NCBI GenBank assembly: GCA_964525635.1
Contig: CAZGJX010000004.1
Span: forward strand, 1 to 64,000
DNA length: 64,000 nt
Direction: 5' to 3'
DNA from: an uncultured archaeon
GTDB lineage: Archaea; Asgardarchaeota; Lokiarchaeia; Sigyniarchaeales; SOKP01
Positions 29,519 to 59,168 of this stretch are shown one piece after another. The position numbers and the translations under genes are program-made. Every line of letters begins with the position of its first letter. Position 1 is the first letter of the stretch. The notes beneath the pieces are model-generated. The model saw only the letters and a program-made list of their open reading frames with translations. It was not told the origin of the DNA and did no database searches.

Positions 29519-30234
29519 CTGAAATATTGAGTAATTTTTCTATTATTTAATTCCTCATTTAATATTCTTTTTGTTGTTTCCCATGATTTCCTAGCAAATG
29601 GAGGAACATCCTTATGATTTTTTATCCATTCTCGTAAAAAATGGATTGTTTTTTTATCTGAAGTATAACCAGAACCTAAATCACTATAACCAAGATTGAG
29701 ATATTTTTCTCTAAGATCATTAATTATAGTATCTCTTTTATTCTTTGCAATTATTGAAGCAGCAGAGACTATAGGAAATAGATCATCTGCTTTATGTTTC
29801 GAAATGATTTGTTTTGGATGATAAGATAAGAGTTTTTTTATTGATTTTCCAAATCTAGTTTCATCTACATCTGCGGCATCAATATAAATAATATCTGGTT
29901 TTAAATCATTAATTATTTCCACCATTTTAAGAATTTCAAGTTTATTTAAAGAAAGATTCTTTAATATCCTATTATCGATTTCTTGAGATGAAACTTGTGT
30001 TTCTTTAAAACAAACGCAATTTTCTTTTATTAACTTAGCTAAAATTTCTCTTTTTCTTGATGTTAGTTTTTTAGAATCTTTAACACCAATGTTATATAAA
30101 TAATCAAGATTAGTATATGGAAAACATACACCACATAACACCATAGGACCTAAAACGGGGCCTTTCGGGCAAAAAAGCGAATTACTTTTTCAACTCCCGG
30201 CCTCATCAATTCCACATATTAGATGATCATCCAT
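29515..30234 (-). CDS. rnhB: ribonuclease HII, split by an intron (exons 30234-30194 and 30163-29515; 229 aa spliced)
   Basis: Exon 1 reads MDDHLICGIDEAG; the splice gives AG+A = Arg, then GPVLGPMV; downstream GVKDSKKL, IDAAD, HKAD, VSAASIIAK, GSGY. Confidence 0.93.
30164..30193 (-). other. 30-nt BHB mRNA intron in rnhB
   Basis: CGGG|AG^T|TGAAAAAG-loop-CTTTTTTG|CCCG|AA^A; contains an in-frame TGA. Confidence 0.85.
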
Positions 30235-30309
30235 AATTCTAATAAAATCCTTTTTTCTTTTTTCATTTGCATTTTTTCAGTTTTTCAATAAATTTAATAT
30301 AAATTATCT

Positions 30310-31335
30310 TTATGAAGTGTTAAGAGTCTCATGAATTTTATTTTTTCTGATATAATTGATAAATTCTATTTCATCATCCATCTTTTCTAAGTTATGAATA
30401 GTTATTACGGGAATTCTTAATTCAGAGAAGTATTTTGGAATTTTTACATCATTATTAACAATAAAAAGAGCATATTTATGAAATAATTTGGTAAATTTGA
30501 ATAAATTTTTCAAGCTATTCCTATTTATATTGCTTTTAATATTTGTTACATCAGAAAATAAGGGGTAAAACTGATTTTGACCATCAATACCCAAGTCTTT
30601 TGAAGAGATTAACATATCAAAAGGGAAAATATCTTTTTTATACCAATAAGATTTGATACCTATATCCTCAATGATATTTTGAATGTGTTCTTCAAATTGA
30701 GTCAATTCTTCCTTTTTTTTTACTTTTTCTATGTTAAAATTTAGTTTAATATCCCAATTAAGAACATTTATTTTTCTAAATATAGAACTTGAGTCTAAAA
30801 CCTCACTTATTTTTTCAGCAACTTTTTTTGAAGGACGCATGTTTTCACTTTCATATGAACAAAGGGTTCTTTTTGTAACTCCAATTTCTTCTGATAGTTC
30901 TTTTCTGGTGATATTTTTTTTTTCTCGTAAAGATTTCATTAATTCTCCATCAAGGAAAATAATCCCACCCCCTCTACGAGCTAATATAATTGGATATGAT
31001 TTTTCTTTAAGGATTTTCTCTAATGTATTTATGGTAATAAATGGTAAATCATTTCTGATATAAATTGTATTATCATCAAGTTTTTGATATCTATTTTTAA
31101 GTCCGATTAATAGAGGTTTAGATTTAAGCAAAGTAGATAGAGTTTTTATTCCATTTATGATATCTTCATTTATATTATCAATATTTTGAACTACTTTTAT
31201 TATAAATACTGTATCATTCTTTTTAACAATTAAATCATAACAATATTTATTTATATGTGATTGAAAATCAAAGACAAATGTTTCGAATTTTGCCTCTATT
31301 AATAGCTGATTTATTCTTTGAATTATTTTTTCCAT
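30310..31335 (-). CDS. conserved archaeal HTH transcriptional regulator (central XRE-type HTH)
   Basis: IKVVQNID, ARRGGG, LREKKNITRKELSEEIGVTKRTLCSYE. Confidence 0.8.
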   Translation of the reverse strand: MEKIIQRINQLLIEAKFETFVFDFQSHINKYCYDLIVKKNDTVFIIKVVQNIDNINEDIINGIKTLSTLLKSKPLLIGLKNRYQKLDDNTIYIRNDLPFITINTLEKILKEKSYPIILARRGGGIIFLDGELMKSLREKKNITRKELSEEIGVTKRTLCSYESENMRPSKKVAEKISEVLDSSSIFRKINVLNWDIKLNFNIEKVKKKEELTQFEEHIQNIIEDIGIKSYWYKKDIFPFDMLISSKDLGIDGQNQFYPLFSDVTNIKSNINRNSLKNLFKFTKLFHKYALFIVNNDVKIPKYFSELRIPVITIHNLEKMDDEIEFINYIRKNKIHETLNTS

Positions 31336-31384
31336 TACTTATTAGTATTATATCGCATGGTTTTAAAAAATTTTTTCATAAAAA

Positions 31385-31645
31385 CAGAAAAATCTCATTT
31401 CTTTAGGATGGATTATGTAATAAAATAATTTGAAAGTCAATAATATCTCTCATACCCTATCTTTAAATAAAAGGAATTCTCTTTAGCAAATAGTGATGAT
31501 AAATTAGATAACCAATGAAGCATCATCATTCTACCATAGGGACTACGGAATATCAAGTGTTTGGAAAAAATATAAGATTCAAGAAATTCGTTGAGCTCGT
31601 TTCGATGAATTACGAATCCAAAACCTTTAGGTGATGGTAGTTCAA
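31385..31645 (+). mobile_element. IS200/IS605-family remnant retaining a tnpB 3' end / omega-RNA-like region
   Basis: TACCATAGGGACTACGGAA...GTTTCGATGAA..GAATCCAAAACCTTTAGGTGATGGTAGTTCA resembles tnpB right ends; left-end-like hairpin ATCTCATTTCTTTAGGATGGGAT; boundaries approximate. Confidence 0.6.
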
Positions 31646-31702
31646 CAAATCCTAGTCTATGATTATTGATTTATTTTTTTTTTCTATTGTTGTTTTATTA
31701 TT

Positions 31703-32236
31703 TTAATTGCTATAGCGTCTATATAGATATTTTGTTATTTTTTTTACTGATTTATTTATTTTTCTATAATTAGCTAAAGGGATTTTATAAAATACATCTG
31801 GATTTATGTGATTTATTACTGTTGTTAGATTTTTATCAATAATTTTTGATCTATATTTAGTTGTGACCATGCAAAATATTAGCTTAGCTGTATTTTTCTC
31901 AGACTTTTCATAAAATATCTCTTTTATATTGTTTGTATGTTTAAGAAAGTCACTATTAGATAAATTAAGTAAATAAACCAAAGCACTAGCACCTTTTAAA
32001 AACTTTGGTAAGAGGAATTCAAAATGTTTATCTTCTGTGATGTTCAATATCTGGAGTTTAACAGCATTATTTTTTATTTTTAAGTCTTTTATATCAAAAT
32101 CTAAACCTATAGATAGTTCTTTATTAAAAGGTAATTTATAGGTATATTTCTCTAAATATCCACTTATCCCCGAATCTTGATGTCCAATAAAGACTATCTT
32201 AAACGTGAACTTATATTTATTATTCAAATTGGGCAT
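31703..32236 (-). CDS. degenerate Rab/Ras-like small GTPase
   Basis: YKFTFKIVFIG, SIGLDF..K, VKLQI, FEFLLPKFLKGASA scaffold; GKT, DxxG and NKxD motifs lost. Confidence 0.75.
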   Translation of the reverse strand: MPNLNNKYKFTFKIVFIGHQDSGISGYLEKYTYKLPFNKELSIGLDFDIKDLKIKNNAVKLQILNITEDKHFEFLLPKFLKGASALVYLLNLSNSDFLKHTNNIKEIFYEKSEKNTAKLIFCMVTTKYRSKIIDKNLTTVINHINPDVFYKIPLANYRKINKSVKKITKYLYRRYSN

Positions 32237-32514
32237 TTAATTTAATTATTAGATAAAGAAAATCAATCTCAAAATATATAAATAATCTTTATTTAAAAGT
32301 TGTTAATTATCAGTTCTATTTAAATTATCTTTAGTTATGTATAGAGAAAAATTTCTACGTAAAGAATTACATTTTAATTAATAATCAAGCTTTCTTTTAT
32401 AAGTGTAGAATTCAATTTCAATTAACTATTATCAATATCTAGAATAATTTTTTTTTGATGAATAATTTAAAAAGATAATTTAAGTCGATATTTAAATAAT
32501 TAGATGATGAATAA

Positions 32515-33750
32515 ATGTTAAAAATCGATCGTGCTAAATTTGATCCAATCGAAGAAAGTGACTTTCCAGAGATTGTTGAACGAAAGGGAGTAGGCCATCC
32601 AGATTCTGTTTGTGATGCTGCTGCAGATGCGTGTTCTAGGGCGCTTTGTAAATATTATTTTGAAAATTTTGGTAGGTATTATCATCATAATGTTGATAAA
32701 GCAGCATTAGTCGGAGGAATTTCTAAACCTGAATATGGTGGAGGTTTAATTATCGAACCAGAATATTTTTTAATCGTAGGTCGAGCAATAAATCAGATTT
32801 TAAGAGATAATAAATTAGAATATATTCCTGTAGCAACTCTTTGTTTGAATGCTTGTAGACAAGTTGTTTCAGATACTTTTCGAAATATTGATGTTACATC
32901 CAATCAACACATACAATTTGATTATGCTGTAAGACCAGGTTCAATTGATTTGACAGGTGTTTTTGAAGAATCAGATGCCCTCGAAAGTGTACCATTAGCA
33001 AATGATACGAGTTTTGGAGTGGGTTATGCTCCTTATTCAGATGTAGAGAAAATTGCATTAGAAGCAGAAAGATTACTTAATTCTGACCAATTTAAAGATA
33101 AATGTCCTGCTTCAGGTGAAGATATTAAAGTCATGGTTCAGAGAGTTGATAAAGATGTGGATATTACTGTCTGCGGTGCTATGGTTAGTAAATTCATACA
33201 TGATAGAAGCGAGTATACAAATTATACAGAACAAATGAGAGATGCAGTTTTAGATCTTGCTGCTAAAAGTATCCCAGATAAAAATTGTAATTGTGCGGTA
33301 AATTTGGGTGATAATATTGAGAAAGATCTTGTATATTTAACAATTACAGGTACTTCCGCAGAAGCTGGTGATGATGGTGAAGTTGGACGTGGGAATAGAA
33401 GTAATGGTTTAATAACACCATGTCGTACAATGTCTCTTGAAGCTGTTTGCGGTAAAAATCCGATTAATCATGTTGGAAAAATATATAATATACTCAGTAC
33501 AAATATAGCTAGAGAAATTTATAAAAGAGGAAAGGGAGACATTATGGAAGCCCATGTTAAATTATTATCTCAGATAGGGCGTCCAATAACAGATCCTTGG
33601 GTTACATCCATTAGTTTAATTCCAAGTGATAATGTATCCTTCGCAAGTATCGAGAAAATTGCAACTGAAGTATCAGAAGAGAAATTAAGCAATGAAAATA
33701 TAATCAAACTAAGAGAACGATTAATTGCAGGAAAAGAACAAGTATTTTAA
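32515..33750 (+). CDS. mat: archaeal S-adenosylmethionine synthetase
   Basis: EIVERKGVGHPDS, HHNVDK, ANDTSFGVG, GEDIKVM, GTSAEAGDDGEVGRGNR, GKNPINHVGKIYN. Confidence 0.96.
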   Translation: MLKIDRAKFDPIEESDFPEIVERKGVGHPDSVCDAAADACSRALCKYYFENFGRYYHHNVDKAALVGGISKPEYGGGLIIEPEYFLIVGRAINQILRDNKLEYIPVATLCLNACRQVVSDTFRNIDVTSNQHIQFDYAVRPGSIDLTGVFEESDALESVPLANDTSFGVGYAPYSDVEKIALEAERLLNSDQFKDKCPASGEDIKVMVQRVDKDVDITVCGAMVSKFIHDRSEYTNYTEQMRDAVLDLAAKSIPDKNCNCAVNLGDNIEKDLVYLTITGTSAEAGDDGEVGRGNRSNGLITPCRTMSLEAVCGKNPINHVGKIYNILSTNIAREIYKRGKGDIMEAHVKLLSQIGRPITDPWVTSISLIPSDNVSFASIEKIATEVSEEKLSNENIIKLRERLIAGKEQVF

Positions 33751-33937
33751 AATTATACCTAATTAGTTATTTTCATTTTTTTATTTTTTTAAAGAAGTAT
33801 ATAATTAAAAAAAAATATTAAATTTAAAATCTATATCAATTTTAATTAGTAATAATTATAATAATCTATATAGGTATAATTCACTTATTAGAATGAGTTT
33901 ATAATTAATAATTCCAATTAATAATTGAGGATTTCTA

Positions 33938-34192
33938 TTGAGTTTAGATAAATGGATTAATTCAGAAGATAAGAACATTAAAAAGAAAAAGATAAAAAGA
34001 AATTTACATGAGAGTAAAGAATCCAAAATTGAGTTAGATAGGGATAAAACATCCATAAAGTTGAAAAAATATACCTTTAACTGTCCAAAATCTAAATGTA
34101 ACTATCAAAAAACCATTTTAAAGAAAAATTTAAATGAAAATGATGGAATTTGTCCAAGATGTAGAGGTAAAATGAAGATTCAAGAGCTATGA
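33938..34192 (+). CDS. small Zn-finger protein
   Basis: CPKSKC...CPRC; TTG start after GAGG. Confidence 0.6.
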   Translation: MSLDKWINSEDKNIKKKKIKRNLHESKESKIELDRDKTSIKLKKYTFNCPKSKCNYQKTILKKNLNENDGICPRCRGKMKIQEL

Positions 34193-34199
34193 AAATTTC

Positions 34200-34436
34200 C
34201 TATCCTATTGGTCCTTCTTGTAGTACTTTCAAATCAAGTTTATCTTCACAAAAAGGGCATGAATTTTTTTTTTTTATGTATTTCCTTATAAGATAAACTA
34301 GATAACCAAATCCAAATGTTAAAATAACAATAAAAAACCAAATCTCATGATATTTTTGATCTATTTGTTTACGTTTTGGTTCAACATATCTCTCACATAT
34401 ATGACAAAACACTTTTTTTTTCACTCTTATAATCAA
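34200..34436 (-). CDS. small membrane-associated Zn-ribbon protein (LITAF-like layout)
   Basis: CHIC - hydrophobic segment - CPFC. Confidence 0.6.
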   Translation of the reverse strand: MIIRVKKKVFCHICERYVEPKRKQIDQKYHEIWFFIVILTFGFGYLVYLIRKYIKKKNSCPFCEDKLDLKVLQEGPIG

Positions 34437-34523
34437 CCTTTAGGATTAAATAGAATAGATCTCTATAATTAAAAAACTTTTTAAATTTAATAATTAATTA
34501 TCTTATTTTTAATATCTAATATT

Positions 34524-35267
34524 TTATTCTTCTAATTTGTGATTATTTAGTATTTTCTTCAATTTTTTAGCAGGTCTTCCAACATAAATCCAATCTTTCT
34601 CAAGATGTTGATTAATTTTTGTATAACTTCCCATTCCTAAAATACATCCTTCTTCTGCTATGGTTCCAGGAGCTACTACACTATAGGCTCCAATCGTGAC
34701 TCTATCTTCTATAATTGTTTTTTTAATTAAGAGTTTATTTCCAATAATCAGAGAACTTAAAATAATAGAACCCTCTCCTAAAATAGCTTCATCACCAAAT
34801 TCAATAAAATCAGAATCAATATAACTATCAAGAACTCCTGTGCTAGAAGGCATTTTTAAATTAAATAACTTTAAAGGAAAAAGTTTTGACCAAGGAAGTG
34901 GAAAGTAATCATAAATCTTAATCACGAATTCTTTTAGTACTTTCCTCAAGTAGTAAAAATAATAATCTTTATTATATACAGAAATTTTAAAAATACCCTC
35001 TTTAGGTTTATGAATTAGATTAAATAAAACTAAGTATAATTTTGCGAAAAACACAAGAGATAGGACAAAAGAACCAAAGTAAATAATAATTAAAAAAGGA
35101 ATTATAAAAAATAATGTAACTAAATTAAAAATTTTATAAAAGATTTCTAAAAACGGTAAAGCAACAATGGAAGTGAAAAAAACCGTTGGCCATACTAATA
35201 AGATTTTTAAAATAAAAAAACGATTTTCTCTAAGATTATTTCCCTTGATTATTGTATCAGAATTCAT
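34524..35267 (-). CDS. membrane protein with left-handed beta-helix (hexapeptide repeat) domain
   Basis: Two TM helices, HKPKEGIF, hexapeptide repeats, YVGRPAK. Confidence 0.75.
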   Translation of the reverse strand: MNSDTIIKGNNLRENRFFILKILLVWPTVFFTSIVALPFLEIFYKIFNLVTLFFIIPFLIIIYFGSFVLSLVFFAKLYLVLFNLIHKPKEGIFKISVYNKDYYFYYLRKVLKEFVIKIYDYFPLPWSKLFPLKLFNLKMPSSTGVLDSYIDSDFIEFGDEAILGEGSIILSSLIIGNKLLIKKTIIEDRVTIGAYSVVAPGTIAEEGCILGMGSYTKINQHLEKDWIYVGRPAKKLKKILNNHKLEE

Positions 35268-35299
35268 TTATTGTTTTAACCTTATCATTATTAAATAAA

Positions 35300-36910
35300 C
35301 TAATAAAATTCTATATTTAAAATTCTCATTAATTCGTCCTTATTTTGAATTTCTTTAATTGGAGCATCGTAGTATATCTTATTTGCTTTTAAATGTTCAT
35401 GTTTGGATGTTATTGAGAATGGTAATATGGTAACATCGTCTTCAATTACATTTCCAGGAGCAATACAACATCCATCACATATTACCACACGATTACTTAT
35501 TTTAATTCCTTTTACAGTCAATACTCTATCCCATAATTGGTTTGTGAGTAATATTTTCCCAAGATAAGAATTTTCACCAATATTTATAAATTCTTTAGAA
35601 AGATACATATCTTCAATTACAGTCCCTTTACCAATAGAACATCCACCAATATAATTGAATACTGGCTTAATTAACCACGGATAGGGGCCTCTCTGGATTT
35701 TCCATTTTGCATATCTGAGTAAGAAAGAACGTAAGAAATAGAAATCATAATCTACGGTTTTTTGTGACCAATGGAATATACCTTCTTTTGGTTTATTAAT
35801 TCGACTTATTATATAATATAAGAATTTAGTGATCAACACCACTAATAGGATATTAAGAATATGAAAACATAATAAGATTAATGGTGTGAAAACAAGAATC
35901 AAATTTGAAATATTTGTAATAATTAATGGGGAGGATGAAGGTGATGCTAATACGTATGGATAAAAAACACCAGCAAAATAGAGATAAAGGCCAAAAAATA
36001 CTATTATATATGATCCTACATAAACAAGTACCCAAATACCAATATATGTTGGAATTCTCATTATGAATTTATTTTCAGGTATTTTTTTCTGTGTTATTAA
36101 ATTTAAAATTTCATTTGATTGGATTTTATCTTCTTCAGATTCTTCTATTGAATCATTAAATAAGTCATAAGAGAGGTCCGTATTATTACACACTTTCCCA
36201 GCAGGGTATCCGGAATAAATTGAGTCTGATTCTAATATTTGATTTATCTTCGTCATAGAAAGCGTGTTTAGAGTAGAATTCTTTTTTATATTTGTCCCCG
36301 GAGATACATAAGAATGAGGGCCTATATTTACATTATCATCAATAACAATTTTTTTTATTACTAAATAATTTCCAAAGATCATACATGATTTAATGAAACT
36401 TCCTTTACCTATGATGATATTACTTCCCAACTCAATAAATTCTGTATCAATATTTCCATTGTTTATACTATTTGATAATGAAGTTTTTACTCCAAATAAC
36501 GTTAAAAAAACGTTATTTAATAATGATGAAGGAATAAGACTTAAAGTCCATATTGGCCATTTTTTTATTACAGCTCGTAAACTCCAGAAATAATAATCGC
36601 GATTTGATTTCTTTCTTTCAAATACTCCTTCTTTAGGTGTATGAATTAGATTTATTAGACTTATAAATAATTTTGATACAATAAATGATGATACAACAAT
36701 AATATAATATCCAATGAGGATTTGAATAGGTAAAAGTAAAAAAAATAGAAGCTTATTTTCCTCAACTAATTTCCAAAACAGAAGAGATTCTATTAATAGC
36801 AAATAGAAACTTATCCAAATATTACTAATATAAATAATCAGGAATTTTTTTGATGCAAGTGTATTAGTTGAATAAGGACCATCTCTCGTAGAAGTAGGGG
36901 TGCTTGTCAT
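35300..36910 (-). CDS. membrane protein with two TM + left-handed beta-helix modules
   Basis: Two copies of the module in 34524-35267 (PKEGVF / PKEGIF; YSGYPA / YYDAPI). Confidence 0.75.
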   Translation of the reverse strand: MTSTPTSTRDGPYSTNTLASKKFLIIYISNIWISFYLLLIESLLFWKLVEENKLLFFLLLPIQILIGYYIIVVSSFIVSKLFISLINLIHTPKEGVFERKKSNRDYYFWSLRAVIKKWPIWTLSLIPSSLLNNVFLTLFGVKTSLSNSINNGNIDTEFIELGSNIIIGKGSFIKSCMIFGNYLVIKKIVIDDNVNIGPHSYVSPGTNIKKNSTLNTLSMTKINQILESDSIYSGYPAGKVCNNTDLSYDLFNDSIEESEEDKIQSNEILNLITQKKIPENKFIMRIPTYIGIWVLVYVGSYIIVFFGLYLYFAGVFYPYVLASPSSSPLIITNISNLILVFTPLILLCFHILNILLVVLITKFLYYIISRINKPKEGIFHWSQKTVDYDFYFLRSFLLRYAKWKIQRGPYPWLIKPVFNYIGGCSIGKGTVIEDMYLSKEFINIGENSYLGKILLTNQLWDRVLTVKGIKISNRVVICDGCCIAPGNVIEDDVTILPFSITSKHEHLKANKIYYDAPIKEIQNKDELMRILNIEFY

Positions 36911-37103
36911 ATAAAAATACTGAACTTATCTTTCTCTTAAAACATATTATTTTTTTTAAGAATTAAATTTTCTGAATTTATAATTTAACTATCAAATATC
37001 TTTAATATTTATAACAAATAAATGTTTAAATATTGATTATTGTTTAATCTTATAGGATAAATATGTTTTTTTTATATTTTAATGCTTAAAAGTTGTATAT
37101 AAT

Positions 37104-38132: not shown

Positions 38133-38323
38133 TTTTTTAAAATAATTTTTTTTAATTTTTTAATTAATATAATGGCATATGCTCAAGCATTCAATTATAA
38201 AAATAGTTGTTAGTTAAAATTATCAATTATCATAACATTAATTACATAGGAGTTATTTTTAATTTTAATTTTAAAGTAATTAAAATATTTCAATAAAAAA
38301 TTGAAAAAGTATAGGTCAGGAAA

Positions 38324-39250: not shown

Positions 39251-39360
39251 TTTTATTTTTTTTATAGTATAATAATTCATAAAAATTATCAATAACATAT
39301 CTTTATTTTTTTTATTCTATAATAAAGAAGTTGATAACCAAACTTTTAAAGAATATATTT

Positions 39361-40032: not shown

Positions 40033-40082
40033 TTGAAGATTACTTTATAAAATTATAAAATAAATGAATAATATAGTCTATC

Positions 40083-40499: not shown

Positions 40500-40519
40500 T
40501 TTTAGTCTTTTTAATTTTA

Positions 40520-41026: not shown

Positions 41027-41046
41027 TTCTTTTATTAACCTCTCTT

Positions 41047-44792: not shown

Positions 44793-44813
44793 GCATCTCT
44801 TTTTTCTATTATT

Positions 44814-49018: not shown

Positions 49019-49363
49019 ATGATAAAAAATAGAAATTATCAATACTTAGTTAGATTTTTAACATTAATTGGAGGAATTGGTGGATTCTTTTTTTCTTTCA
49101 CAAATTTATATCATATTATTGATGTTATTGAATTAATTAACATAGAAGGGTTCACATATATTATAATAAATTGTATTGGAATGATATTTGCAGAAATAGT
49201 AATGCTATTTTCAATAAGACCTAACAAACCTATTCCAATTCATTTTGTACTAATTGGAATTATGGGTTTTTTAATTATGATTTTCAGTTATTTTTGGTGT
49301 GGTTTTTTATTATTAATCGGAGGAGGTATTGATTTAATTACTAGAACAGGTGGGAAAGAATGA
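49019..49363 (+). CDS. small membrane protein
   Basis: 114 aa, about four hydrophobic helices; ATGA overlap with the next gene. Confidence 0.65.
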   Translation: MIKNRNYQYLVRFLTLIGGIGGFFFSFTNLYHIIDVIELINIEGFTYIIINCIGMIFAEIVMLFSIRPNKPIPIHFVLIGIMGFLIMIFSYFWCGFLLLIGGGIDLITRTGGKE

Positions 49364-52300
49364 AATATTTTATAAAAATACATTATAAGTTTATTGTTTT
49401 AATAATTCTAGCTTTTTTAATTTTTAATTTTATTCCAAACTTAGATTTAATGCATTATAATGAAGATAAATTTGAATCCTCTAGCTTTACTAATGAATTA
49501 TTATGCTCTAGTATAAAAAGTAATTATAATATAATTGAAGATCTCTTTAAAGATAAAATAGAACAATATTCAGAAAATAACTATTATAATCAATATTACA
49601 CCCCTTCTTTACAAGGAATGTTTTATGCTCTATATATATTAGATGTTATTGGAAAATTAAATTCAGCTAACCATACTTCAATGGTCTCCTATATAATAAA
49701 TCAATATGATGAAGATTTACAATTTTTTATGGGTGATTATTCATACCATTATTTGGACACAGACTTTAATTTAAAGTACTATTCTTTAAATTCAGTATTA
49801 GAAGTAAATTGCTATGCTGTTTTATCTCTTAATATTTTAAACAGAACTGATTTAATAAATTCAGAGAAATTTATTGATTTTATTTGGAGTTGTTTTAATC
49901 CTAATAAAGGGGGATTTATAGAACAACCATTTAATCATGATATTCATCCATTTTTTAAATTACCAACATTAGACAACACTTATTTCGCAATTCTTACCTT
50001 AGATTTGTTAAATAATGATTGGAGTTTAAATAGAGGGGAAAAAAATAATATAACTAATTTTGTTAACAGTTTGCAAAGTGACATGAGTAGTGATATCTTC
50101 TTTGGAGGTTTTCTCAATGACAATAATGATAATTTTAATAGTCTAAATTGTTTTGAACCAAATCTTCTTTCAAGTTTTTATGCAATAAAGATTCTTGACA
50201 TTTTTGGATTAAAGGAGACAATTGATATGAATAATTTCTATTCATATTTGGGATTTTTATATGATTCAAATGAGAATTATTTTAATTTTGCTGGATTATT
50301 GCCATCTAATAATTATTCAAATTTAATCGCTAGTAGTTTAGGATTAGATCTTTCTATTATTACTAATTATTTGAATATAAGCAAACAAGAGATTATTACA
50401 TTCTTATTAGAAAATCAGAATGGTATAGGATTATGGTCTCATACTACAGAAACCGAAACACTTCAATTAATTGATACTTTTCAAATAATCAGATCTTTAA
50501 AAGAATCAGGTAATATAGATATATTAAATGAATCTAATAAAAATAAAATTTCTGAAGCATTATCACTTTTTACCTCTAATCATGGATATAGTATAACACC
50601 TCACACGTTTACTCTTCAATCTACTTTAAACACAGTAATAAGATCATTTTATTTGCATGATAGAATTTCTGAATTAGAAATCCAAGATCTTTATTCAAAA
50701 ATCGAGAAATCTTATTATGATTCAGATAATGATCCTAGTCGAGGATTTTATGCTTGTATAAATTTAGATAGGGCATATTCAGATTTTCGTTGTCTTCCTA
50801 TAGAGTTTCATAATTTTGGAAATCATATATTCACATCAAAAATTGATTATCCAAATGCTCAAAAACATACTTATTTAGCATTGGATTCTTTGAGAAATAT
50901 TTTTAAAATGGATGATTTTTCAAGAAGACATAATCTAACTGAATTATTGCATAGTATATTAAATTGCCAATATATGGATGAGAATTCTCCTTACTATGGG
51001 GGTTTTATCCCTTTTGAAGGATTAAACCAATTGAATACAACAAATAAAGAAAAATTCATATTCTTAGAAAATTCTTACTATACAATCAAATGCTTAGAAT
51101 TACTCTCTCAGATTCTTGGCTTAAATTCTATAACTAATATGAGTTTTAATAAAGAAGCCTTATTCAATTATTTACAAAGTAATGTAAAAGAAACAGATTC
51201 GGAAGTTTATTTTCAACCATCTTATAGCTCAGATATAGAACTTGCATTAAAAAATACGTATTTTATGATCTATATACTACAGACTCTAAACCTTTATGAT
51301 CTTAACACTCTGAAAATTAAGAATTTCATTTCAAATCATTTAAATTATGAAAATATTATTAATATCTACTATTCATATAAAATCTCTGAACTATTAAAGT
51401 TAAATTTTCCATTCGATTCTGAAAAGATATATGAATTGGTTAAATTATTATTTGTTGAAGATATAAAAGAATTCAAAGTATCTAAAGATTTTAATGTAAT
51501 TAATCAAGAAATTGTTTTATGGATAGTAGAAATGGCGAAATTTAGTCCTCTTGAAATTGATTTTGATTATCAAGAGATGATTAAATTAGGAAGTGTAAAT
51601 ACGATAAGATTAAAATTTCAAAACATGATTCTTAAAGAATTTGGAGATTATGTTATAATAATATATGAAAATGAGCAATTAGGTACACTTTATTTTGAGG
51701 AACAATATGATAAATCATATCAAGTAAGTTTCTATATCCCTGAAGAACCTCAATATTTTCCTTCTATAGATGGTAAAGTTAAAATTTATATAAATGGTGT
51801 CTTGACAAAAGAATTAAATATTGAAATACAGACAGAACTAGATCAAGTAATAATAGAAAAGATCAATAAAGTAAACACAGAAATATGTTTTGAATACAAT
51901 ATCTCTCGACTAACTAATTCTGAATATCTCGCTTTAGGTAATTCTTCACTAAAAACAGAGATTTATTACCAAAATAATCTTATTGATATAGTTAATTTTG
52001 AAGAGGAAGTGTTTATTAACCATACTTATTATTTCCTTGAATATAATTGTTCTTTCGAAGGTCTTTTTGAGTTTAAAATAGTATTAACTGATGATTTTTA
52101 TCCCTATGGTTTAGATTTATCAATTATACCTTTTGAGGTTGAGTTTCAAAATACTGAATTAAATAATAATCTAATTTTCACTGGTCCCTTATTAGCAGTT
52201 CTATGTTTGATGCTAAGTTCAGCAATATTAATTATTTCAATCAATTCTGGAAAATATTTAAAAAATAAGTTTTGGGTTAAAAATCCAAAAGTGAACCCCC

Positions 52301-52380
52301 ATATAGTAAAAGAAGAAGAAGACTACAATACAATTGATAATAAACTTAAATCATATGTAAAAAAACTCTTTAAAGATTGA
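49360..52380 (+). CDS. secreted/membrane-anchored alpha/alpha-toroid (prenyltransferase/squalene-oxidase-like repeat) protein
   Basis: N-terminal signal/TM; repeated Q..GGF....TY.A+..L units; C-terminal TM. Confidence 0.7.
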   Translation: MKYFIKIHYKFIVLIILAFLIFNFIPNLDLMHYNEDKFESSSFTNELLCSSIKSNYNIIEDLFKDKIEQYSENNYYNQYYTPSLQGMFYALYILDVIGKLNSANHTSMVSYIINQYDEDLQFFMGDYSYHYLDTDFNLKYYSLNSVLEVNCYAVLSLNILNRTDLINSEKFIDFIWSCFNPNKGGFIEQPFNHDIHPFFKLPTLDNTYFAILTLDLLNNDWSLNRGEKNNITNFVNSLQSDMSSDIFFGGFLNDNNDNFNSLNCFEPNLLSSFYAIKILDIFGLKETIDMNNFYSYLGFLYDSNENYFNFAGLLPSNNYSNLIASSLGLDLSIITNYLNISKQEIITFLLENQNGIGLWSHTTETETLQLIDTFQIIRSLKESGNIDILNESNKNKISEALSLFTSNHGYSITPHTFTLQSTLNTVIRSFYLHDRISELEIQDLYSKIEKSYYDSDNDPSRGFYACINLDRAYSDFRCLPIEFHNFGNHIFTSKIDYPNAQKHTYLALDSLRNIFKMDDFSRRHNLTELLHSILNCQYMDENSPYYGGFIPFEGLNQLNTTNKEKFIFLENSYYTIKCLELLSQILGLNSITNMSFNKEALFNYLQSNVKETDSEVYFQPSYSSDIELALKNTYFMIYILQTLNLYDLNTLKIKNFISNHLNYENIINIYYSYKISELLKLNFPFDSEKIYELVKLLFVEDIKEFKVSKDFNVINQEIVLWIVEMAKFSPLEIDFDYQEMIKLGSVNTIRLKFQNMILKEFGDYVIIIYENEQLGTLYFEEQYDKSYQVSFYIPEEPQYFPSIDGKVKIYINGVLTKELNIEIQTELDQVIIEKINKVNTEICFEYNISRLTNSEYLALGNSSLKTEIYYQNNLIDIVNFEEEVFINHTYYFLEYNCSFEGLFEFKIVLTDDFYPYGLDLSIIPFEVEFQNTELNNNLIFTGPLLAVLCLMLSSAILIISINSGKYLKNKFWVKNPKVNPHIVKEEEDYNTIDNKLKSYVKKLFKD

Positions 52381-52455
52381 TCTATTACATTAATTTTTTT
52401 TTTTCTTATTTCATTTCTTTTTTCTTTAAATAATTATATATTAAATTTTTATTAA

Positions 52456-54873
52456 ATGAAAGAACAAATTCAAAAAAAGAATGTTTTATTATATTGTGAA
52501 AACTGTGGTGTAAGAATAGATGATATAGATCTAAATAATAATATTTTGGAGAATAATAGTTTATTTTGTCAATATTGTGGGATTGAAATAGATATCAATA
52601 TTGACTCTTACACCTCCTTTAAATCGTCTAAACACGAAAATGACAAAGATAGAAATAATTATGATACTCCGTTGGAGAGAATTCTATATGACACAAAATT
52701 ACCAAATAATTTTAAGCAAAATTTGATTATTGTAATAGCCCGGTTATCCTATGAACCAATAAGAGAATTTGAACAAATACTAAATAAAAAGATTAGAAAT
52801 ATTAAATTAACAAAGGAACTATTAGACAAGTTGGAAAGTGTAATAAAACCTATAACTTACAAAGAAATTCGTCAAAATTACCTTAAGAATCTCTATAAAA
52901 ATATGAAAATAGAAGATTTTAACCATTTTCATACCCTTCTGAAGGAGAATCTAAAACTTAATCCTAATTATGAACATGATTTTATTATATTTTTAAGGTG
53001 GATTATTTTTCAAGTTTTTACAATCATAAAGAAAAAATGGAATAATAAGGGGATTTCTAGTTTCCATAAAATCGTTAGAGAGGATTTAAAGAAATTTTTT
53101 AATGTAGATCATGAAAACATTAATAAAAATAATTTAAAAATCAATTCAAGGATGATTAAAATTATGGTAATTTTGGAGGAAAATTTTGAAAGATTTTATA
53201 GTGTTTCTGATTTAGCTGATGAAATAAAAGCAGACCGTGCTAATATTGCGAAAGATCTTAATTATTTATTAAAACATAATTTAGTTGATTACAGATATGA
53301 AGGAAAAAGAAAATTATGGAAAGCTATAAAAAAAATACCGAAAAATGAAAAAATTCAACATATATCTGTTGATAAACTAAAAGAACTCTATGTAGAATTA
53401 TGGAGTTTTAAAAAGATAGCAAGATTTTTGGAAAATCAAGGTTTTAGCAAAATATATCATCCAACAACCATTGATAAAAAAATTAGAGAATCATTTCATT
53501 CAATAGAAGAGTATGAAAAATGGAAAAATGAATTTAAAGTTAATAAATTAATTGAAATTGCTAAATTAAAAGGTGGTAAATTTTTAGGAAATAAATATCT
53601 TGGGATGAAAACAACACATATTTTTTATTGTGAAAAACATAAAAGAAATTTTAATATTACTCCTGATTGTTTGATTAATCGGGGACAATGGTGTCCAAAA
53701 TGTGGACATGAAAAAGCAGGAAAAAAACAGAGATTAAAAATTGAAAATTTAGAAAAAATCATTAAAAAGAGAGGGGGTAAATTAATTTCAAAAACTTATG
53801 GAAAAGATCAATGTGATCCTATTATAATCGAATGTAAAATGCGACATAAATTTTCAATTTTACCTAAGACATTAAAGAGAGGTGCTTGGTGTGATATATG
53901 TTCTTCAGGAATCAATGAAAATATTACCAGAAAGATGTTCGAATATATATTTAATGTTAAATTTCCAAAAAGTACTCCAAAATGGTTAATAACAAAAAAG
54001 GGATTTCAAATGCATCTTGATGGATATAGTAAACAATTGAATATTGCTTTTGAATTTCAAGGAAAACAACATTATCTATATCATTCCTATTTTCATAAAA
54101 ATGAAGATGCTTTTCATAAACAACAAAAAACGGATCTATTAAAACGAAAACTATGCAAAGAAAACAAGGTTAAATTAATTGAAGTACCATATTTTATAAA
54201 AAAAAAAGACCGATTTATTTATATTATTGATGAATGTAAAAAAAGAAATATTAAAATAAGAAAGGATCTTGAACCTAAAAATTGGAATGATTTTAAAATT
54301 TATCTACCAGAAAAATATGAGAGATATAAGAAAATGGCAAATTCATTCGGTTTTGATCTAGTTTCTGGAACTTACAGAGGATTTTACCAAAAAGTTACTT
54401 TAATATGCCAAACCTGTAACATTAATTTATATGTAACTCCTAATTTAATACAAAGAAAAGTCAGGGAAGAAAAAATATTAGAATGTCCTAATTGTAAGTT
54501 TACCAAAAATATAAAGAAAATAATTGATAAAATTCAAGATAAAAATGGTAGACCTATTAAATTCAAATTTAAGGGTAAGGATAAAAGACTTTATTTTCTC
54601 ATTGAATGTATGATATGTAATTATCAATGGTGGTTGAGGGATGATGCAATAATGGGAGATGTATCTTGGTGCCCTAAATGTTCTGGTAAAGAAAAAAGAA
54701 CAATAGAACGAATAAATAAATTCGCTAATCGATTTGATGGTAGATGTATAAATAGAGAATATTTTAATAAACATACATATTTTACATTTCAATGCAATAA
54801 ATGTAACCACCAATGGAAATCAACATATGATATGATGAAAAAAAGAAAATATTTTTGTCCTGCATGCAAATAA
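52456..54873 (+). CDS. multi-Zn-ribbon putative endonuclease with winged-helix domain
   Basis: Repeated WCPKC/WCDIC modules; LDGYSKQLNIAFEFQGKQHY...KRKLCKENKVKLIEVPY nuclease-like motif; SVSDLADEIKADRANIAKDLNYL HTH. Confidence 0.7.
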   Translation: MKEQIQKKNVLLYCENCGVRIDDIDLNNNILENNSLFCQYCGIEIDINIDSYTSFKSSKHENDKDRNNYDTPLERILYDTKLPNNFKQNLIIVIARLSYEPIREFEQILNKKIRNIKLTKELLDKLESVIKPITYKEIRQNYLKNLYKNMKIEDFNHFHTLLKENLKLNPNYEHDFIIFLRWIIFQVFTIIKKKWNNKGISSFHKIVREDLKKFFNVDHENINKNNLKINSRMIKIMVILEENFERFYSVSDLADEIKADRANIAKDLNYLLKHNLVDYRYEGKRKLWKAIKKIPKNEKIQHISVDKLKELYVELWSFKKIARFLENQGFSKIYHPTTIDKKIRESFHSIEEYEKWKNEFKVNKLIEIAKLKGGKFLGNKYLGMKTTHIFYCEKHKRNFNITPDCLINRGQWCPKCGHEKAGKKQRLKIENLEKIIKKRGGKLISKTYGKDQCDPIIIECKMRHKFSILPKTLKRGAWCDICSSGINENITRKMFEYIFNVKFPKSTPKWLITKKGFQMHLDGYSKQLNIAFEFQGKQHYLYHSYFHKNEDAFHKQQKTDLLKRKLCKENKVKLIEVPYFIKKKDRFIYIIDECKKRNIKIRKDLEPKNWNDFKIYLPEKYERYKKMANSFGFDLVSGTYRGFYQKVTLICQTCNINLYVTPNLIQRKVREEKILECPNCKFTKNIKKIIDKIQDKNGRPIKFKFKGKDKRLYFLIECMICNYQWWLRDDAIMGDVSWCPKCSGKEKRTIERINKFANRFDGRCINREYFNKHTYFTFQCNKCNHQWKSTYDMMKKRKYFCPACK

Positions 54874-54883
54874 TTTAATTTTT

Positions 54884-56029
54884 TTAATCATTATCTCCTC
54901 TAGCAGAGACTAAGGCTTCTACTAGTATACTGCCTATGCTAATGAATATGGGCACTTCAACTCTGACAAGCTCCCCGAGGATCCAGCGGTTGATATCCTT
55001 AATGAGAAACCGTATTTGAGAGATTAGATTCTTTCTTACATCAGAATCAAGGATCTTAGTTAACCATAACCCTCCTCCTAATCGATAAGCGATTATTTTA
55101 ATTAAAGGATCAAATAAATCATCTAATACTTGTTTCATCATCCAAGATTTTGGAATCACACTCATGTTATTTTCATTAAATGAAGGATCTCTAAGAAGAG
55201 GATTATTTTCGTCTACAGATATTTTGGGCATAAAACTAAGTAGGAGGATTAAAGCAAATATAGCAGAAATACCGTTTATTGTATATTCTCCTCCAATTTT
55301 ATCCAAGTTTTCACGATTTATTGCGGTATTCGCTAAAAACATACAAATAAAGATATTTCGATCAAAATCCTCAGAAACATAAGCATAGCCTAATTTTTCA
55401 TCTATAATAAGATATTTCTCTTCCAGAATGTATAAAATTTCATCTGGAAATGTATAAAATGTATAAACTTTTTCTTCACTTCTACGTTTATCTTTTTCAA
55501 CAATTAATTCTTTTGATACTAATCCAAATAGTTCTACAAGATTATCTAATTGTTTTTTAATATTTTTTTTTGGTTTATTTGGATCTCCGAACATAGCATA
55601 AAATTGATGATCGACAATATGAAAATCATTTCTACTACTAAATGCTTCTACCATTCTGTCAATAATTGGTATTTGTGTTCCTGAAGCAATTGCTTTTGCT
55701 TTTGATGTAATAAAGCCATTAATTAATTCATTTATAATAAAATCTTGTTCATGAGTTCTTGATTTTAAAATATTTTTAAAAGCTTCAGTAAAATCAAGTG
55801 TATTGGGAAAAAAAGCGTTCTGAATTTTATCATCAATAGCTTTTTTAAATATATCTCCTTCATTTTTAGGAAAATGCGTTTTAATATCATTTAACCGCCT
55901 TAAAAGTGCTTCTCTAGAACCAGGTATTTTTTCAATATCTCTTTCTTCTAGTTGTTTGATAGCTTTTTCAATTCCTTTTATAAAATCTTGTATTAGATTT
56001 TTCCAAGTTGGATCTTGCTTTTCAGACAT
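54884..56029 (-). CDS. hypothetical protein
   Basis: 381-aa ORF in a tight three-gene cluster. Confidence 0.75.
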   Translation of the reverse strand: MSEKQDPTWKNLIQDFIKGIEKAIKQLEERDIEKIPGSREALLRRLNDIKTHFPKNEGDIFKKAIDDKIQNAFFPNTLDFTEAFKNILKSRTHEQDFIINELINGFITSKAKAIASGTQIPIIDRMVEAFSSRNDFHIVDHQFYAMFGDPNKPKKNIKKQLDNLVELFGLVSKELIVEKDKRRSEEKVYTFYTFPDEILYILEEKYLIIDEKLGYAYVSEDFDRNIFICMFLANTAINRENLDKIGGEYTINGISAIFALILLLSFMPKISVDENNPLLRDPSFNENNMSVIPKSWMMKQVLDDLFDPLIKIIAYRLGGGLWLTKILDSDVRKNLISQIRFLIKDINRWILGELVRVEVPIFISIGSILVEALVSARGDND

Positions 56030-56045
56030 AATATATTATTAAATT

Positions 56046-57020
56046 TTAATTATTATCAATATCCCAATTCAATTCTTTAGCTAATTTTCTCAAAGCATCA
56101 ATTAGGGGTTTAATTAATTCTTTATTATAAAGATTACTATTTCCTGACCCCTTTTGAGCTTTCCAACCTAATTTTGAACCATTTGCAATTTCATTAATCC
56201 CATATTTTAATACACTTTTGAGATCACGAGTCCACCAATAAAATCTAAGCCATTTTTTATTTGGATTATCTTTTGAGTAGATAACTACCAGTGCTTTCCA
56301 TTCTCCCATTAACCATTTTATAGTTATCCCACTTACAGGTAGATAAAAGTTTATAGGAAAATTCCCTTGAAAGTTTAATTTTAATTCAGATGTGGGAATA
56401 TTAAATATTGGCTGATTATAACCTTCTAAAATTACAATTTCTCCACAATGAGGACATTCATAATGGGATTTTTCTTTTTTCATTTTTTTTTGGCAATTTG
56501 GACATGTGCGATTTTCGATTATCCTATATCTAATTAAATCCAGTTTGTTATCTCTTATTATTTCATCTTCTTTTTTTGATTTATTTTCCTTAAATTTCCC
56601 TTTAAAAGTCCAAAAATCATCGAAATCTTTATTTATACGTTCTAATGATTTAATAAGATTAATTAATACCTCTTCTTCATATATTTTTATCATTCCAGCG
56701 TGTTGATAGAAGGATTTTTTCCACCATGATAATCTTATGTATTTTTCACTTTCTAAATAAGTGCTATGGCAAATCAAAACTGCAAACATCCTCGTTTCTG
56801 TTTTATTTATAATTAGACCTTTTTCACATACTTCATAATCAGAATTGAGGGAAGCAGTTCGATGAAAATATTCTCCATCTTGAAAATCGCCCTTCTCCAG
56901 TTTTTTCGTTTCTATTTCCTTCTTTTCCTTAATATCTCTAGTAATTTTTTTACATTGAGAACATTGATATATTCCTTCAACCAATGGGACCATATCAATA
57001 TTACAAGCGGGACATTTCAT
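56046..57020 (-). CDS. internally duplicated Zn-ribbon protein
   Basis: CPAC..CSQC + KYIRLSWWKK, then CPNC..CPHC + KWLRFYWWTR. Confidence 0.75.
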   Translation of the reverse strand: MKCPACNIDMVPLVEGIYQCSQCKKITRDIKEKKEIETKKLEKGDFQDGEYFHRTASLNSDYEVCEKGLIINKTETRMFAVLICHSTYLESEKYIRLSWWKKSFYQHAGMIKIYEEEVLINLIKSLERINKDFDDFWTFKGKFKENKSKKEDEIIRDNKLDLIRYRIIENRTCPNCQKKMKKEKSHYECPHCGEIVILEGYNQPIFNIPTSELKLNFQGNFPINFYLPVSGITIKWLMGEWKALVVIYSKDNPNKKWLRFYWWTRDLKSVLKYGINEIANGSKLGWKAQKGSGNSNLYNKELIKPLIDALRKLAKELNWDIDNN

Positions 57021-57031
57021 AATTTACATCT

Positions 57032-58126
57032 TTAGCTGTTTGTTAAGAGAAATCTTTCATAATCTAAATTTAAAAGTTTAACTTGCTTTTTTGTTAATGT
57101 TTTTATAATTTTATTGATATCTATTATCTTTTCTCTTAGAGAAATTAAATCATTTTTTATTTTATCATGAATATTATCTTCATTGAAGGATATTTTTTCA
57201 ATAAATTCTAAATAGCTATTTTTTCTATTTTTCCCTGTATAATTATTTCTAATTGATTCTAGCTCTTGATCAATATTATCCATTTTGTATCTAAATTTTA
57301 ATATTTGAATAAGTTTTGAGTGCCATTCTTTAAAGATTTTCTCATTTTTATCTATTTTATCAAATTCAAATTTATCTGAGAGAGAGATTTTTTCATCTTT
57401 TAGATGTTTTACTATATCTTTATTTTCTTCAATTGATTTATTGATTTTTTTTTTGATATTTTTTTTATTTAATGTAGGATCGTAAATATCTATAAATTCT
57501 AATATTTTATCAAAAATCTCTTTAAATCTATAATAAAATCCTTCAATAGTAATCTCTATTTTAATTGCTTGATAAATATTTCCAAATTGGTCTAGGATAT
57601 TATATAAATCATTGGAAAGGGAGTAATCATTTTCTCCAATTTGAAAAATAAAAGAATGAATCATACCAGAATGTTCACACCTTACACTTTTTAATCTTGT
57701 TAATGCTAGATTAAAATTCCTTCTAGTTAAATGTTTGAATTTCTTATTTATCATTAAAAAAAGGGTATCATCAGGGATTAAAATCATATCCTCTTCGATT
57801 GTAATTGTTTCTTCTCCTAATTTTATTTGGAAATCTCCATCTTTTTGTTCAAATTCCTTTATATTTCTAATATTTTTCATTAAACCTAAATCTATAGCAA
57901 TTTCAATGAAATCTTCATTCCAAAATTTTAATATATTATTTTTATAAATTTCATCAAGAATTAGCACCCTTTCATAGGATTCTGTGATTTGTTTATCTGT
58001 TAAGTCTTTAAAAAGATCATTTCTTACAATATATTGAAAAAGAATAATATATCTCATATTAATATCATCAAGAATTCGATTAATCAAATCCTTGTCATAT
58101 TCTAATGATAATTTATTATGCTCCAT
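57032..58126 (-). CDS. hypothetical protein with C-terminal coiled coils
   Basis: 364-aa ORF; GAGG upstream of ATG. Confidence 0.75.
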   Translation of the reverse strand: MEHNKLSLEYDKDLINRILDDINMRYIILFQYIVRNDLFKDLTDKQITESYERVLILDEIYKNNILKFWNEDFIEIAIDLGLMKNIRNIKEFEQKDGDFQIKLGEETITIEEDMILIPDDTLFLMINKKFKHLTRRNFNLALTRLKSVRCEHSGMIHSFIFQIGENDYSLSNDLYNILDQFGNIYQAIKIEITIEGFYYRFKEIFDKILEFIDIYDPTLNKKNIKKKINKSIEENKDIVKHLKDEKISLSDKFEFDKIDKNEKIFKEWHSKLIQILKFRYKMDNIDQELESIRNNYTGKNRKNSYLEFIEKISFNEDNIHDKIKNDLISLREKIIDINKIIKTLTKKQVKLLNLDYERFLLTNS

Positions 58127-58553
58127 ACCTATTATCCTCTATTATTTGGTAATATCATAAATATTTCAACCAAAAAGAGTATCTAGAGAAATAAATCACT
58201 CCTAAAAAATTTTATGATGATTGATAGTAAAATCTTGGATATTTTAACATTTGTTTTCATGAAATAATATGCCAGTTTCAACATCAATATGCACCACACT
58301 ACCCAATTAATATTAAAAGTATGGTTATATTTAGAAAATTTCTATCTCTTAGAAATTTTTTATCCTCTATCTTATAGGTTTTTTTTAGAGAAGGAATAAG
58401 ATGTTATATTTAAAAAAAAAGGAAAAATAAAAGAATCAGAGTAATAGAATGAACTAGAAAAATATTTAAGATTTAGCTTCTTTTATTTAATTAGCTATTT
58501 TTGTGAAATAAAACAATTATTTAATTCAATAAATCAAAAATTAGGTGATAGAT

Positions 58554-59168
58554 ATAGGTAGACGAAAGAGAAAACAACAAACTTATAAGAGGATTAAAAA
58601 GTTACCTAAGATTTTCACTTGCCCACAATGATATTTGGATTTACCAAATATTGAGGAATGTGGTGAGAAATCTGTTAAAGTTGAAAATGTTAAAAAACAA
58701 AATGGGTTTGCAAAAGTGAAATGTGGTCATTGTAGTTTGGAAAAGGAAGTATTAATTAATTCGATTTCAGAACCTGTTGATGCTTTTGGTGATTTTATTG
58801 ATATTTACTATGCTGATACTGAACTTCAGAGATTGGAAAAGGGTATTTCTAAATTAAAAGAAAATAATGAATGGGGAGAACTTGGTTTAGCTTATTCTTT
58901 ATTATCGAATTTATGCAGAATTAAAGCCGCTCAACTTTTAGAAGAAGAGGAGGATGTTGATATGAATGAAGTTACTGAATGGAAAACTAAGGGGGAAAAA
59001 TATAAAAGATTAGAAAAGGATGCTTTATTAAAATTAGAAACTGAAGAATTAGAAGAAGGGATCAAAACTGATGAAGACTCTTTATTTTCAGAACATGATG
59101 AAAGTGATATTCGTAAAAAGCGTGATATTGAAGATGTTTTCGAAGATCCAGGTTTTTTAGAATTTTAA
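58554..59168 (+). CDS. elf1: transcription elongation factor Elf1 with C-terminal extension, split by a 30-nt insert (194 aa spliced)
   Basis: (M)GRRKRK..KKLPKIFTCPQ^CGEKSVKV..AKVKCGHCSL..EPVDAFGDFIDIY; ATA start after AGGTGA. Confidence 0.88.
58628..58657 (+). other. 30-nt putative relaxed-BHB mRNA intron in elf1
   Basis: Hairpin ATATTTGG-ATTTA-CCAAATAT; candidate bulges CA^A and GA^A; in-frame TGA; exact ends ambiguous because of the AATG direct repeat. Confidence 0.7.

Follow-up and report, generated by a model that had tools for sequence, protein, structure and literature searches.

Interrupted RNase HII and Elf1 genes

Two conserved genes in a stretch of DNA from an uncultured Asgard archaeon (GenBank contig CAZGJX010000004.1, positions 1 to 64,000), those for RNase HII and Elf1, are each broken by an insert of 30 nt. 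The whole stretch of 64,000 nucleotides is referred to here as the window; it is contig C4:1-64000 of a genome of 4.45 Mb in 245 contigs (G000), and its G+C content is 21-33%. The close relatives of this genome are metagenome-assembled genomes (MAGs) labelled Promethearchaeota, Promethearchaeia or Lokiarchaeota, which places the organism among Asgard archaea of the Lokiarchaeia type. Both inserts carry the geometry of a motif called bulge-helix-bulge (BHB). In this motif, the 5' strand consists of an outer helix (h), a central helix (H), a bulge and an inner helix (h'), and the 3' strand of h', H, a bulge and h; the endonuclease cuts behind the second base of each 3-nt bulge (Marck and Grosjean 2003, as summarised in bioRxiv 10.64898/2026.10.13.758758).

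The RNase HII gene lies on the minus strand. Exon 1 (30194..30234) starts with an ATG at 30234, encodes MDDHLICGIDEAG plus the first two bases of an Arg codon, and ends with GAG GCC GGG AG at 30194. It is followed by the 30-nt intron (30164..30193), whose borders were placed by protein alignment and BHB fold, and by exon 2 (29515..30163), which starts with A GGC CCC at 30163 and continues through the stop codon. Without splicing, the frame reads G S and then stops at a TGA (30192-30190), one base past the cut. Deletion of 30193-30164 yields GIDEAGRGPVLGP. Exact deletion joins AG to A and thereby forms the Arg of the invariant DEAGRGP, while shifts of 1-2 bases give Lys or Ser instead. The frame after the insert resumes with GPVLGPMVLCG, and the gene as a whole matches the Pfam family RNase_HII (3.5e-43). 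The intron is situated at about codon 14, within the catalytic motif.

The 5' strand of H, CGGG (30199-30196), is part of exon 1, as are bulge bases A30195 and G30194, and T30193 completes the first bulge. The hairpin h' pairs 30192-30184 with 30178-30170 (9/9 bp) and closes the loop AATTC (30183-30179). Next come the 3' strand of H, CCCG (30169-30166), and the second bulge, A30165 A30164 | A30163. With CGGG/CCCG, the central helix is fully paired (4/4); AG|U and AA|A form the bulges, and both of the cuts predicted from the BHB fall at the bonds that the protein alignment requires.

Gene callers recognize only a 209-aa open reading frame (ORF) of this gene, starting at 30144. The sole entry with 100% identity in the protein collection is this truncated 209-aa call, and no spliced-form protein of the organism was found there. 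The insert is base-for-base identical in contigs of four other salt-marsh metagenome runs, and a joined, insert-free form was not found in the DNA contigs of those four runs.

The Elf1 gene lies on the plus strand and comprises exon 1 (58545..58628, ending with GRRKRKQQTYKRIKKLPKIFTCPQ), a 30-nt intron (58629..58658) assigned by homology and BHB fold, and exon 2 (58659..59168, from CGEKSVKVENVKKQNGFAKVKCGHCSLEKE through the stop codon). A previous placement of the intron at 58628-58657 gives the identical mRNA. The sequence reads TGC CCA CAA | 30 nt | TGT GGT, such that the unspliced frame ends with KIFTCPQ and a stop, the TGA (58629-58631) being located at the cut. Removal of the insert yields FTCPQCGEKSVKV, in which CPQ is joined to CGEKSVKV and the first zinc knuckle is restored. 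The homologue matches the Pfam family Zn_ribbon_Elf1 (2.1e-13), and the intron falls at about codon 25-28, within the zinc-knuckle motif. Its central helix is CCAC (58623-58626)/GAGG (58653-58656), with 3/4 pairs and one A.A mismatch. The bulges are AA|U and AA|U (A58627 A58628 | T58629 and A58657 A58658 | T58659), and the 9-bp hairpin (58630-58638 with 58644-58652) has the loop ATTTA. The outer helix, located at 58619-58622 on its 5' side, has 4 bp, of which three are G.U. The same core of a 3-nt bulge, a 4-bp helix and a 3-nt bulge, together with a 9-bp hairpin, is thus found in the RNase HII and Elf1 inserts alike. The spliced products are predicted to contain the junction peptides GIDEAGRGPVLGPM and IFTCPQCGEK.

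Elf1 probably starts at an ATA (58554), the alternative being a GTG at 58545. The ATA is 5 nt behind a Shine-Dalgarno-like AGGTGAT, and the in-frame GTG overlaps this element (region 58543-58559). In relatives, the homologous MGRRKRK begins with ATG, GTG, TTG or CTG.

A third BHB intron is found in a tRNA-Lys(CUU) gene on the plus strand (1509..1613), which was assigned from a partial Rfam match and by reading through the sequence. This intron is 31 nt long (1569-1599), is positioned in the T-loop at 59/60, and forms a canonical hBHBh' with the central helix UUCG/CGAA and bulges AUA and AUU. The Rfam match is a partial tRNA (1516-1577) that covers only model positions 8-63, and ARAGORN reported no tRNA in the window, so that this gene was missed. 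Because standard tools miss tRNA genes with T-loop introns, tRNA counts for the genome come out too low. The list of BHB sites in the window that fuse ORFs contains nothing convincing besides RNase HII and Elf1. A preliminary description of the window had reported a 31-nt tRNA BHB intron and two 30-nt inserts, each with a hairpin and an in-frame TGA, near a gene start and inside a conserved motif; all of these features are present in the sequence.

Distribution in relatives and across the genome

For RNase HII, a search of 40 relatives and of a collection of species genomes yielded 42 loci. The bond that is interrupted in G000 bears an insert in 26 of them, and DEAGRGP is uninterrupted in 16. 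The inserts are 30 nt long in 24 loci, with one of 29 nt and one of 31 nt. Their sequences diverge widely from one another, with TAA, TAG or TGA at varying offsets, and the downstream frame is intact (58-70% identity).

We then aligned 20 distinct same-site inserts without gaps and counted pairs against the BHB structure. Pairing occurs in 90% of cells, compared to 70% in shuffled alignments and 29-39% when the partners are slid. Compensatory changes on both sides affect 11 of 14 pairs, and the covariation score of 0.537 (0.18 in shuffles) was not reached in any of 500 shuffles. The paired positions extend into the exon, where the Ala and Gly codons each contribute their wobble base to a pair with the intron; the Gly wobble base (column 12) forms G-C, U-G, U-A or C-G with the intron and is unpaired in none of the inserts. 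The differing sequences and stop codons, the 29- and 31-nt lengths and the strong covariation together exclude a pseudogene, an artefact, UGA recoding or a translated insertion as explanations of the RNase HII insert. As a separate observation, the loop consensus AWTTC is kept in the introns of the relatives (alignment columns 25-29).

The insert also leaves a trace in protein databases. The 120 cluster representatives closest to this RNase HII divide into 67 of full length (median 228 aa) and 53 gene calls (median 212 aa) in which the N-terminus is cut short and DEAGRGP is missing; several of these 53 start at an ATG within the intron.

The Elf1 insert is restricted to four genomes, all of the window's own genus, and CPx-CG is uninterrupted in all other genera. 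The hairpins have diverged among the four, with 4 compensatory pairs and 87% of cells paired, compared to 32-47% when slid; 3 of 500 shuffles scored as high. The RNase HII intron, common to several genera, is thus old, whereas that of Elf1 is confined to a genus and some others described below are species-specific.

In the survey of the genome, homology served to define the inserts, and structure played no part in this. Open frames of a relative (G018) from a different genus of the same family, in which both introns of the window are lacking, were compared with the whole genome by tblastn. With the 1.97 Mb of G018 that were used (about 60% of its genome), about 1000 orthologous loci are comparable. 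The census identified 19 short inserts of 28-45 nt in 17 genes; with Elf1, there are 20 introns in 18 genes. Eleven are 30 nt long and four are 31 nt, with one each of 28, 29, 32, 40 and 45 nt.

Host genes were named via Pfam matches of the intact G018 orthologues and, additionally, one conserved motif. Those in transcription and translation are RNA polymerase A' and A'', EF-2, aIF5B, aIF2-gamma and Elf1; a DnaG-like Toprim protein and RNase HII are also hosts. Further hosts are two small GTPases, one of the Ras family and one Arf-like (the latter with three introns), a ubiquitin-family protein and a ThiF/E1-like enzyme, as well as MoxR, a DeoC-family aldolase, the POR gamma subunit, CTP synthase, an AMP/thymidine phosphorylase and a MoCF-domain protein.

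By inspection, the 3-4-3 core is found at the exact site and length defined by homology in all 20 introns. The central helix has 4/4 pairs in 15 of them and 3/4 in five; the latter include the introns of CTP synthase and MoxR, whose hairpins are irregular. Throughout, a cut behind the second bulge base would give a functional product. In an automated scan (+-12 nt), 17 of the 20 sites passed a relaxed test, 15 of these at the true site, and at least 12 of the 20 passed a perfect-helix test. Control positions near the same loci passed the relaxed test at a rate of 0.36% per position (8.7% per site) and the perfect-helix test at 0.044% (1.1% per site), corresponding to binomial probabilities of 1e-12 and 3e-19, respectively. 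Among in-frame inserts relative to G018, a BHB is present in 10 of 11 stop-bearing inserts of 30 nt, compared to 3 of 45 stop-free inserts of at least 21 nt (Fisher 8e-8). Two census sites, C109:8360 and C100:13124, were rejected as introns.

These results bear on several proposals in the preliminary description. The ideas that such introns are common in the genome and hidden behind truncated genes are borne out by the census and by the 53 truncated RNase HII representatives, and BHB geometry is indeed enriched at the homology-defined sites. A length of 30 nt and a position toward the 5' end hold as tendencies. However, the introns are not confined to information-processing genes, given hosts such as the aldolase, POR gamma, CTP synthase, the phosphorylase, the MoCF-domain protein, the small GTPases and the ubiquitin-system genes. 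Neither is a TGA one base past the cut a general trait: the relatives have TAA or TAG elsewhere, and only 5 of the 20 introns have a stop at offset 0-1. Unspliced mRNA reaches a stop at most 27 nt past the 5' cut in 17 of 18 scorable cases. The comparable loci number only about 1000 and yet gave at least 20 introns, spread over 18 genes, so that the genome as a whole probably contains dozens.

The exon flanks (12 bases per side) have a G+C content of 46%, compared to 26.8% in the genome and 26% in the introns. We infer that, in such an A+T-rich genome, only G+C-rich codons, i.e., the Gly, Ala, Pro and Arg codons of conserved motifs, can give a stable central helix; this would account for the placement of the introns in the most conserved motifs. 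The position along the gene is also biased, as the first 35% of the protein contains 18 of the 20 introns (median position 0.20; binomial 5e-7). Candidate causes of this bias are N-terminal nucleotide-binding motifs, harm from long truncated products, and loss from the 3' side. A 5' bias is also seen in intron-poor eukaryotes.

There was no indication of an intron sequence family or mobile element, as shuffling produces shared words at least as long as the longest ones in the 20 introns. Similarly, no loop motif is enriched among all compact BHB-like hairpins of the genome. In a post hoc comparison, five of the 20 introns (RNase HII, ThiF, POR gamma, DeoC and MoxR) had TAATTC at the apex of the hairpin or close to it, a count reached by only 2 of 5000 composition-preserving shuffles.

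Several observations concern where the introns lie. In aIF5B, EF-2 and aIF2-gamma, which are paralogous translational GTPases, and in the DeoC aldolase, the intron follows DHG (G000:C19:11080, C151:5048, C142:4695 and C3:4428). This motif is encoded by GAY CAT GG, and the exon strand of the central helix is ATGG or CATG. The aIF5B intron is species-specific, and the pattern suggests that introns were gained several times at a favoured proto-splice sequence instead of being inherited. In the Arf-like GTPase gene (G000:C10:23524-23725), three introns of 28, 45 and 30 nt lie within about 200 nt, the first of them in Walker A (GPS|LGGKT).

The set of introns differs between genomes. G018 has introns of its own elsewhere, of 33, 36 and 42 nt in three genes, and its DeoC aldolase gene contains a 32-nt intron at a site differing from that in G000. 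Among 41 genomes searched, three congeners included, G000 alone has the introns in RpoA'' and aIF5B. Such species-specific introns imply that gain is ongoing, and both gain and loss appear to occur over short evolutionary time scales.

Two further patterns were seen at these loci in relatives. In six of them (G008, G017, G021, G024, G036 and G037), the RpoA'' match begins at query residue 40, in open frames of 617-942 aa, and in G017 a match to the first 69 residues is located 1.5 kb upstream. Either A' and A'' are arranged differently there, or a larger intervening element occupies this place. In the congener G002 (C278:4410-4784), the aIF5B match starts at residue 24, at the site of the G000 intron, within a 582-aa open frame. 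A frame-shifting intron may interrupt the G002 gene at that very bond.

Splicing enzymes and competing explanations

The genome encodes two EndA paralogues (PF01974; C18 and C105). One is closest to the catalytic alpha subunits of crenarchaeal heterotetramers (3p1z_B from A. pernix, 3ajv_B and 2zyz_B), and the second is more divergent. RtcB is also encoded, as is the RtcB activator Archease, whose gene (G000:C4:69469-69888) is on the same contig, 5.5 kb past the end of the window. Asgard archaea are described as having an (alpha-beta)2 EndA with an L1 loop and broad specificity, which cuts relaxed motifs (PMC5829648). Such an enzyme fits the weak outer helices of the G000 introns.

It is highly likely that the 30-nt inserts in RNase HII and Elf1 are archaeal splicing-endonuclease (BHB) introns within protein-coding transcripts, and very probably mRNAs of this genome need to be cut and rejoined routinely. 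This is also what the preliminary description had proposed, and it gains support from the exact BHB geometry at the splice sites, the covariation and the genes for EndA, RtcB and Archease. The inserts, their geometry and covariation, their patchy phylogenetic distribution and the enzyme genes are all demonstrated. In the pre-mRNA, the central helix would be formed by four bases of exon 1 together with four from the intron's 3' end, and the rest of the intron would fold as a 9-bp hairpin, leaving a 3-nt bulge on either strand. A heteromeric EndA, consisting of the crenarchaeal-type alpha subunit and the second paralogue, would cut behind base 2 of both bulges, and RtcB would join the exons, with Archease as helper. 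In RNase HII, joining would rebuild the Arg codon within DEAGRGP; in Elf1, it would link CPQ to CG. Translation of unspliced mRNA would stop at a codon among the first bases of the intron.

It is important to consider several points that weigh against this interpretation. EndA cleavage, RtcB ligation and the existence of spliced mRNA are inferred. A scan of the genome by structure only (3.7 million BHB-like sites with H of at least 3/4 and h' of at least 4) found that fusions of open frames are no commoner than with cuts shifted by 1-2 nt, in every class; in a genome of 27% G+C, chance hairpins at gene junctions swamp the signal, so the motif alone is unspecific, and for this reason the homology census was used instead. 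Many of the motifs are of the relaxed HBh' type and not the strict hBHBh' type, because the outer helix is weak (0-1 bp) in 13 of 20 introns. As to flanking helices in the window, h' has 9 bp in both genes, but h has only 1 bp in RNase HII, compared to 4 bp in Elf1. The central helix of Elf1 is mismatched (A.A or G.A) in all four genomes of the genus. Finally, ribosomes would have to be excluded from unspliced mRNA by some means.

The weak outer helices and the mismatched Elf1 helix could also be taken to mean that the inserts are removed from RNA by machinery other than EndA and RtcB, such as an unknown nuclease and ligase, or by self-cleavage. We regard this as improbable. The 3-4-3 geometry with cuts behind the second bulge base is EndA's measure, and it is found at 20 of 20 sites as well as in the tRNA-Lys intron. 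Moreover, the inserts are much too short for group I or II ribozymes, and Rfam identified no ribozyme in the window.

Slightly less probable again is that the inserts are retained in the mRNA, with the stop codon either read through or recoded to give a 10-residue insertion, or with the ribosome hopping over the insert in the manner of T4 gene 60 (programmed bypassing). It is true that 11 of the 20 inserts have a length of exactly 30 nt, which is divisible by three, and that a stop followed by a hairpin looks like a bypass signal. However, 9 of the 20 are not multiples of three, the lengths range over 28-45 nt, and RNase HII has its 29- and 31-nt variants. In the relatives, up to three stops per insert (TAA, TAG or TGA) occur in differing places, with no conserved in-frame UGA, and stop-free inserts do not carry the BHB. 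The take-off and landing codons required for bypassing are unmatched (AGU and AGG in RNase HII, CAA and GAA in Elf1), and ten extra residues in DEAG|RGP or in the CPxCG knuckle would wreck the active site.

The truncated ORFs reported by gene callers might suggest broken genes, i.e., pseudogenes, assembly or sequencing artefacts, or excision at the DNA level, but this is close to refuted by the same-site inserts with intact flanking frames and compensatory changes in many independent MAGs of different studies, by the single match per genome for the tested query segments (including RNase HII, Elf1, RpoA'' and aIF5B), by the presence of EF-2 and RpoA' among the genes found split, and by the identical RNase HII insert, never in joined form, in the four further samples mentioned above.

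Relation to known systems and biological meaning

Splicing of mRNA by the archaeal endonuclease is known from few genes. According to a 2023 review, at least two genes, cbf5 and HVO_1309, are spliced in this way, and more probably remain to be found (PMC10485636). In a search of the full-text literature, whose coverage is outside subscription journals, we found no publication on BHB introns in Asgard mRNAs, and the papers from 2025-2026 that were found cite no mRNA targets beyond cbf5. Asgard tRNA introns have been described (PMC11291895; bioRxiv 10.64898/2026.10.13.758758).

The closest parallel is the intron in the cbf5 pre-mRNA of Crenarchaeota (Aeropyrum, Sulfolobales and Desulfurococcales; Watanabe 2002, Yoshinari 2006, Yokobori 2009 = PMC2738675). 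This is a short intron in a coding sequence with a BHB that is often relaxed, it shows patchy gain and loss among relatives, and its endonuclease is hetero-oligomeric. The G000 introns likewise lie inside coding sequences, where they break the frame or bear stops. However, cbf5 is one gene in one lineage, compared to at least 18 genes with up to three introns per gene in one Asgard genome, and the G000 introns are very uniform in size (30-31 nt), with some of them species-specific. Also, the splicing of cbf5 is proven by experiment, while that in G000 is predicted from sequence.

The HVO_1309 mRNA of Haloferax volcanii (PMC10485636) is a further example of EndA acting on an mRNA, and its spliced product was seen in RNA-seq. 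However, it is a single euryarchaeal case with an alpha2-type enzyme and does not represent a set of coding-sequence micro-introns. The non-canonical tRNA introns of Asgard archaea share the motif, the presumed enzymes and the lineage with the introns described here, as well as repeated gains at positions that permit the motif; the tRNA-Lys intron is one of them. The papers on these introns concern tRNA genes only, whereas the hosts in G000 are mRNAs, for which frame, stops and translation matter.

Splicing of HAC1/XBP1 by IRE1 is similarly independent of the spliceosome, with a protein endonuclease followed by an RtcB-type ligase, and here too the unspliced mRNA gives no functional protein. 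Unlike the G000 sites, in which the cuts are in 3-nt bulges across a 4-bp helix, IRE1 cuts twin 7-nt loops with a sequence consensus, and it has one regulated target, which is under the control of endoplasmic reticulum stress. A search for the IRE1 RNase domain (PF06479), made without a positive control, found no match in the genome. HAC1-like conditional control of the G000 introns is pure speculation.

More generally, it could be asked whether micro-intron splicing acts as a gate on gene expression, beyond a tolerated housekeeping step. Because RNA polymerase A' and A'', EF-2, aIF5B, aIF2-gamma, DnaG, RNase HII and Elf1 would all require EndA and RtcB prior to translation, splicing activity could give the cell a means of adjusting or checking how much core transcription and translation it can carry out. 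We consider such a role unlikely. It also demands that splicing be separated from translation in time or space, and the idea that the separation of RNA processing from translation in eukaryotes would have a prokaryotic forerunner here is doubtful to the same degree.

What appears to be new is the presence of at least 20 putative introns of this kind in one Asgard genome, several of them in the most essential genes for transcription and translation, with other sets in related genomes. Since gene callers truncate or split intron-bearing genes, the gene inventories and completeness estimates of Asgard genomes are distorted. If the transcripts are confirmed, routine protein-catalysed splicing of mRNA would exist in the closest archaeal relatives of eukaryotes, and coupled transcription and translation would have to accommodate it. 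These introns would then also offer a natural system in which to study intron gain, 5' bias and site preference.

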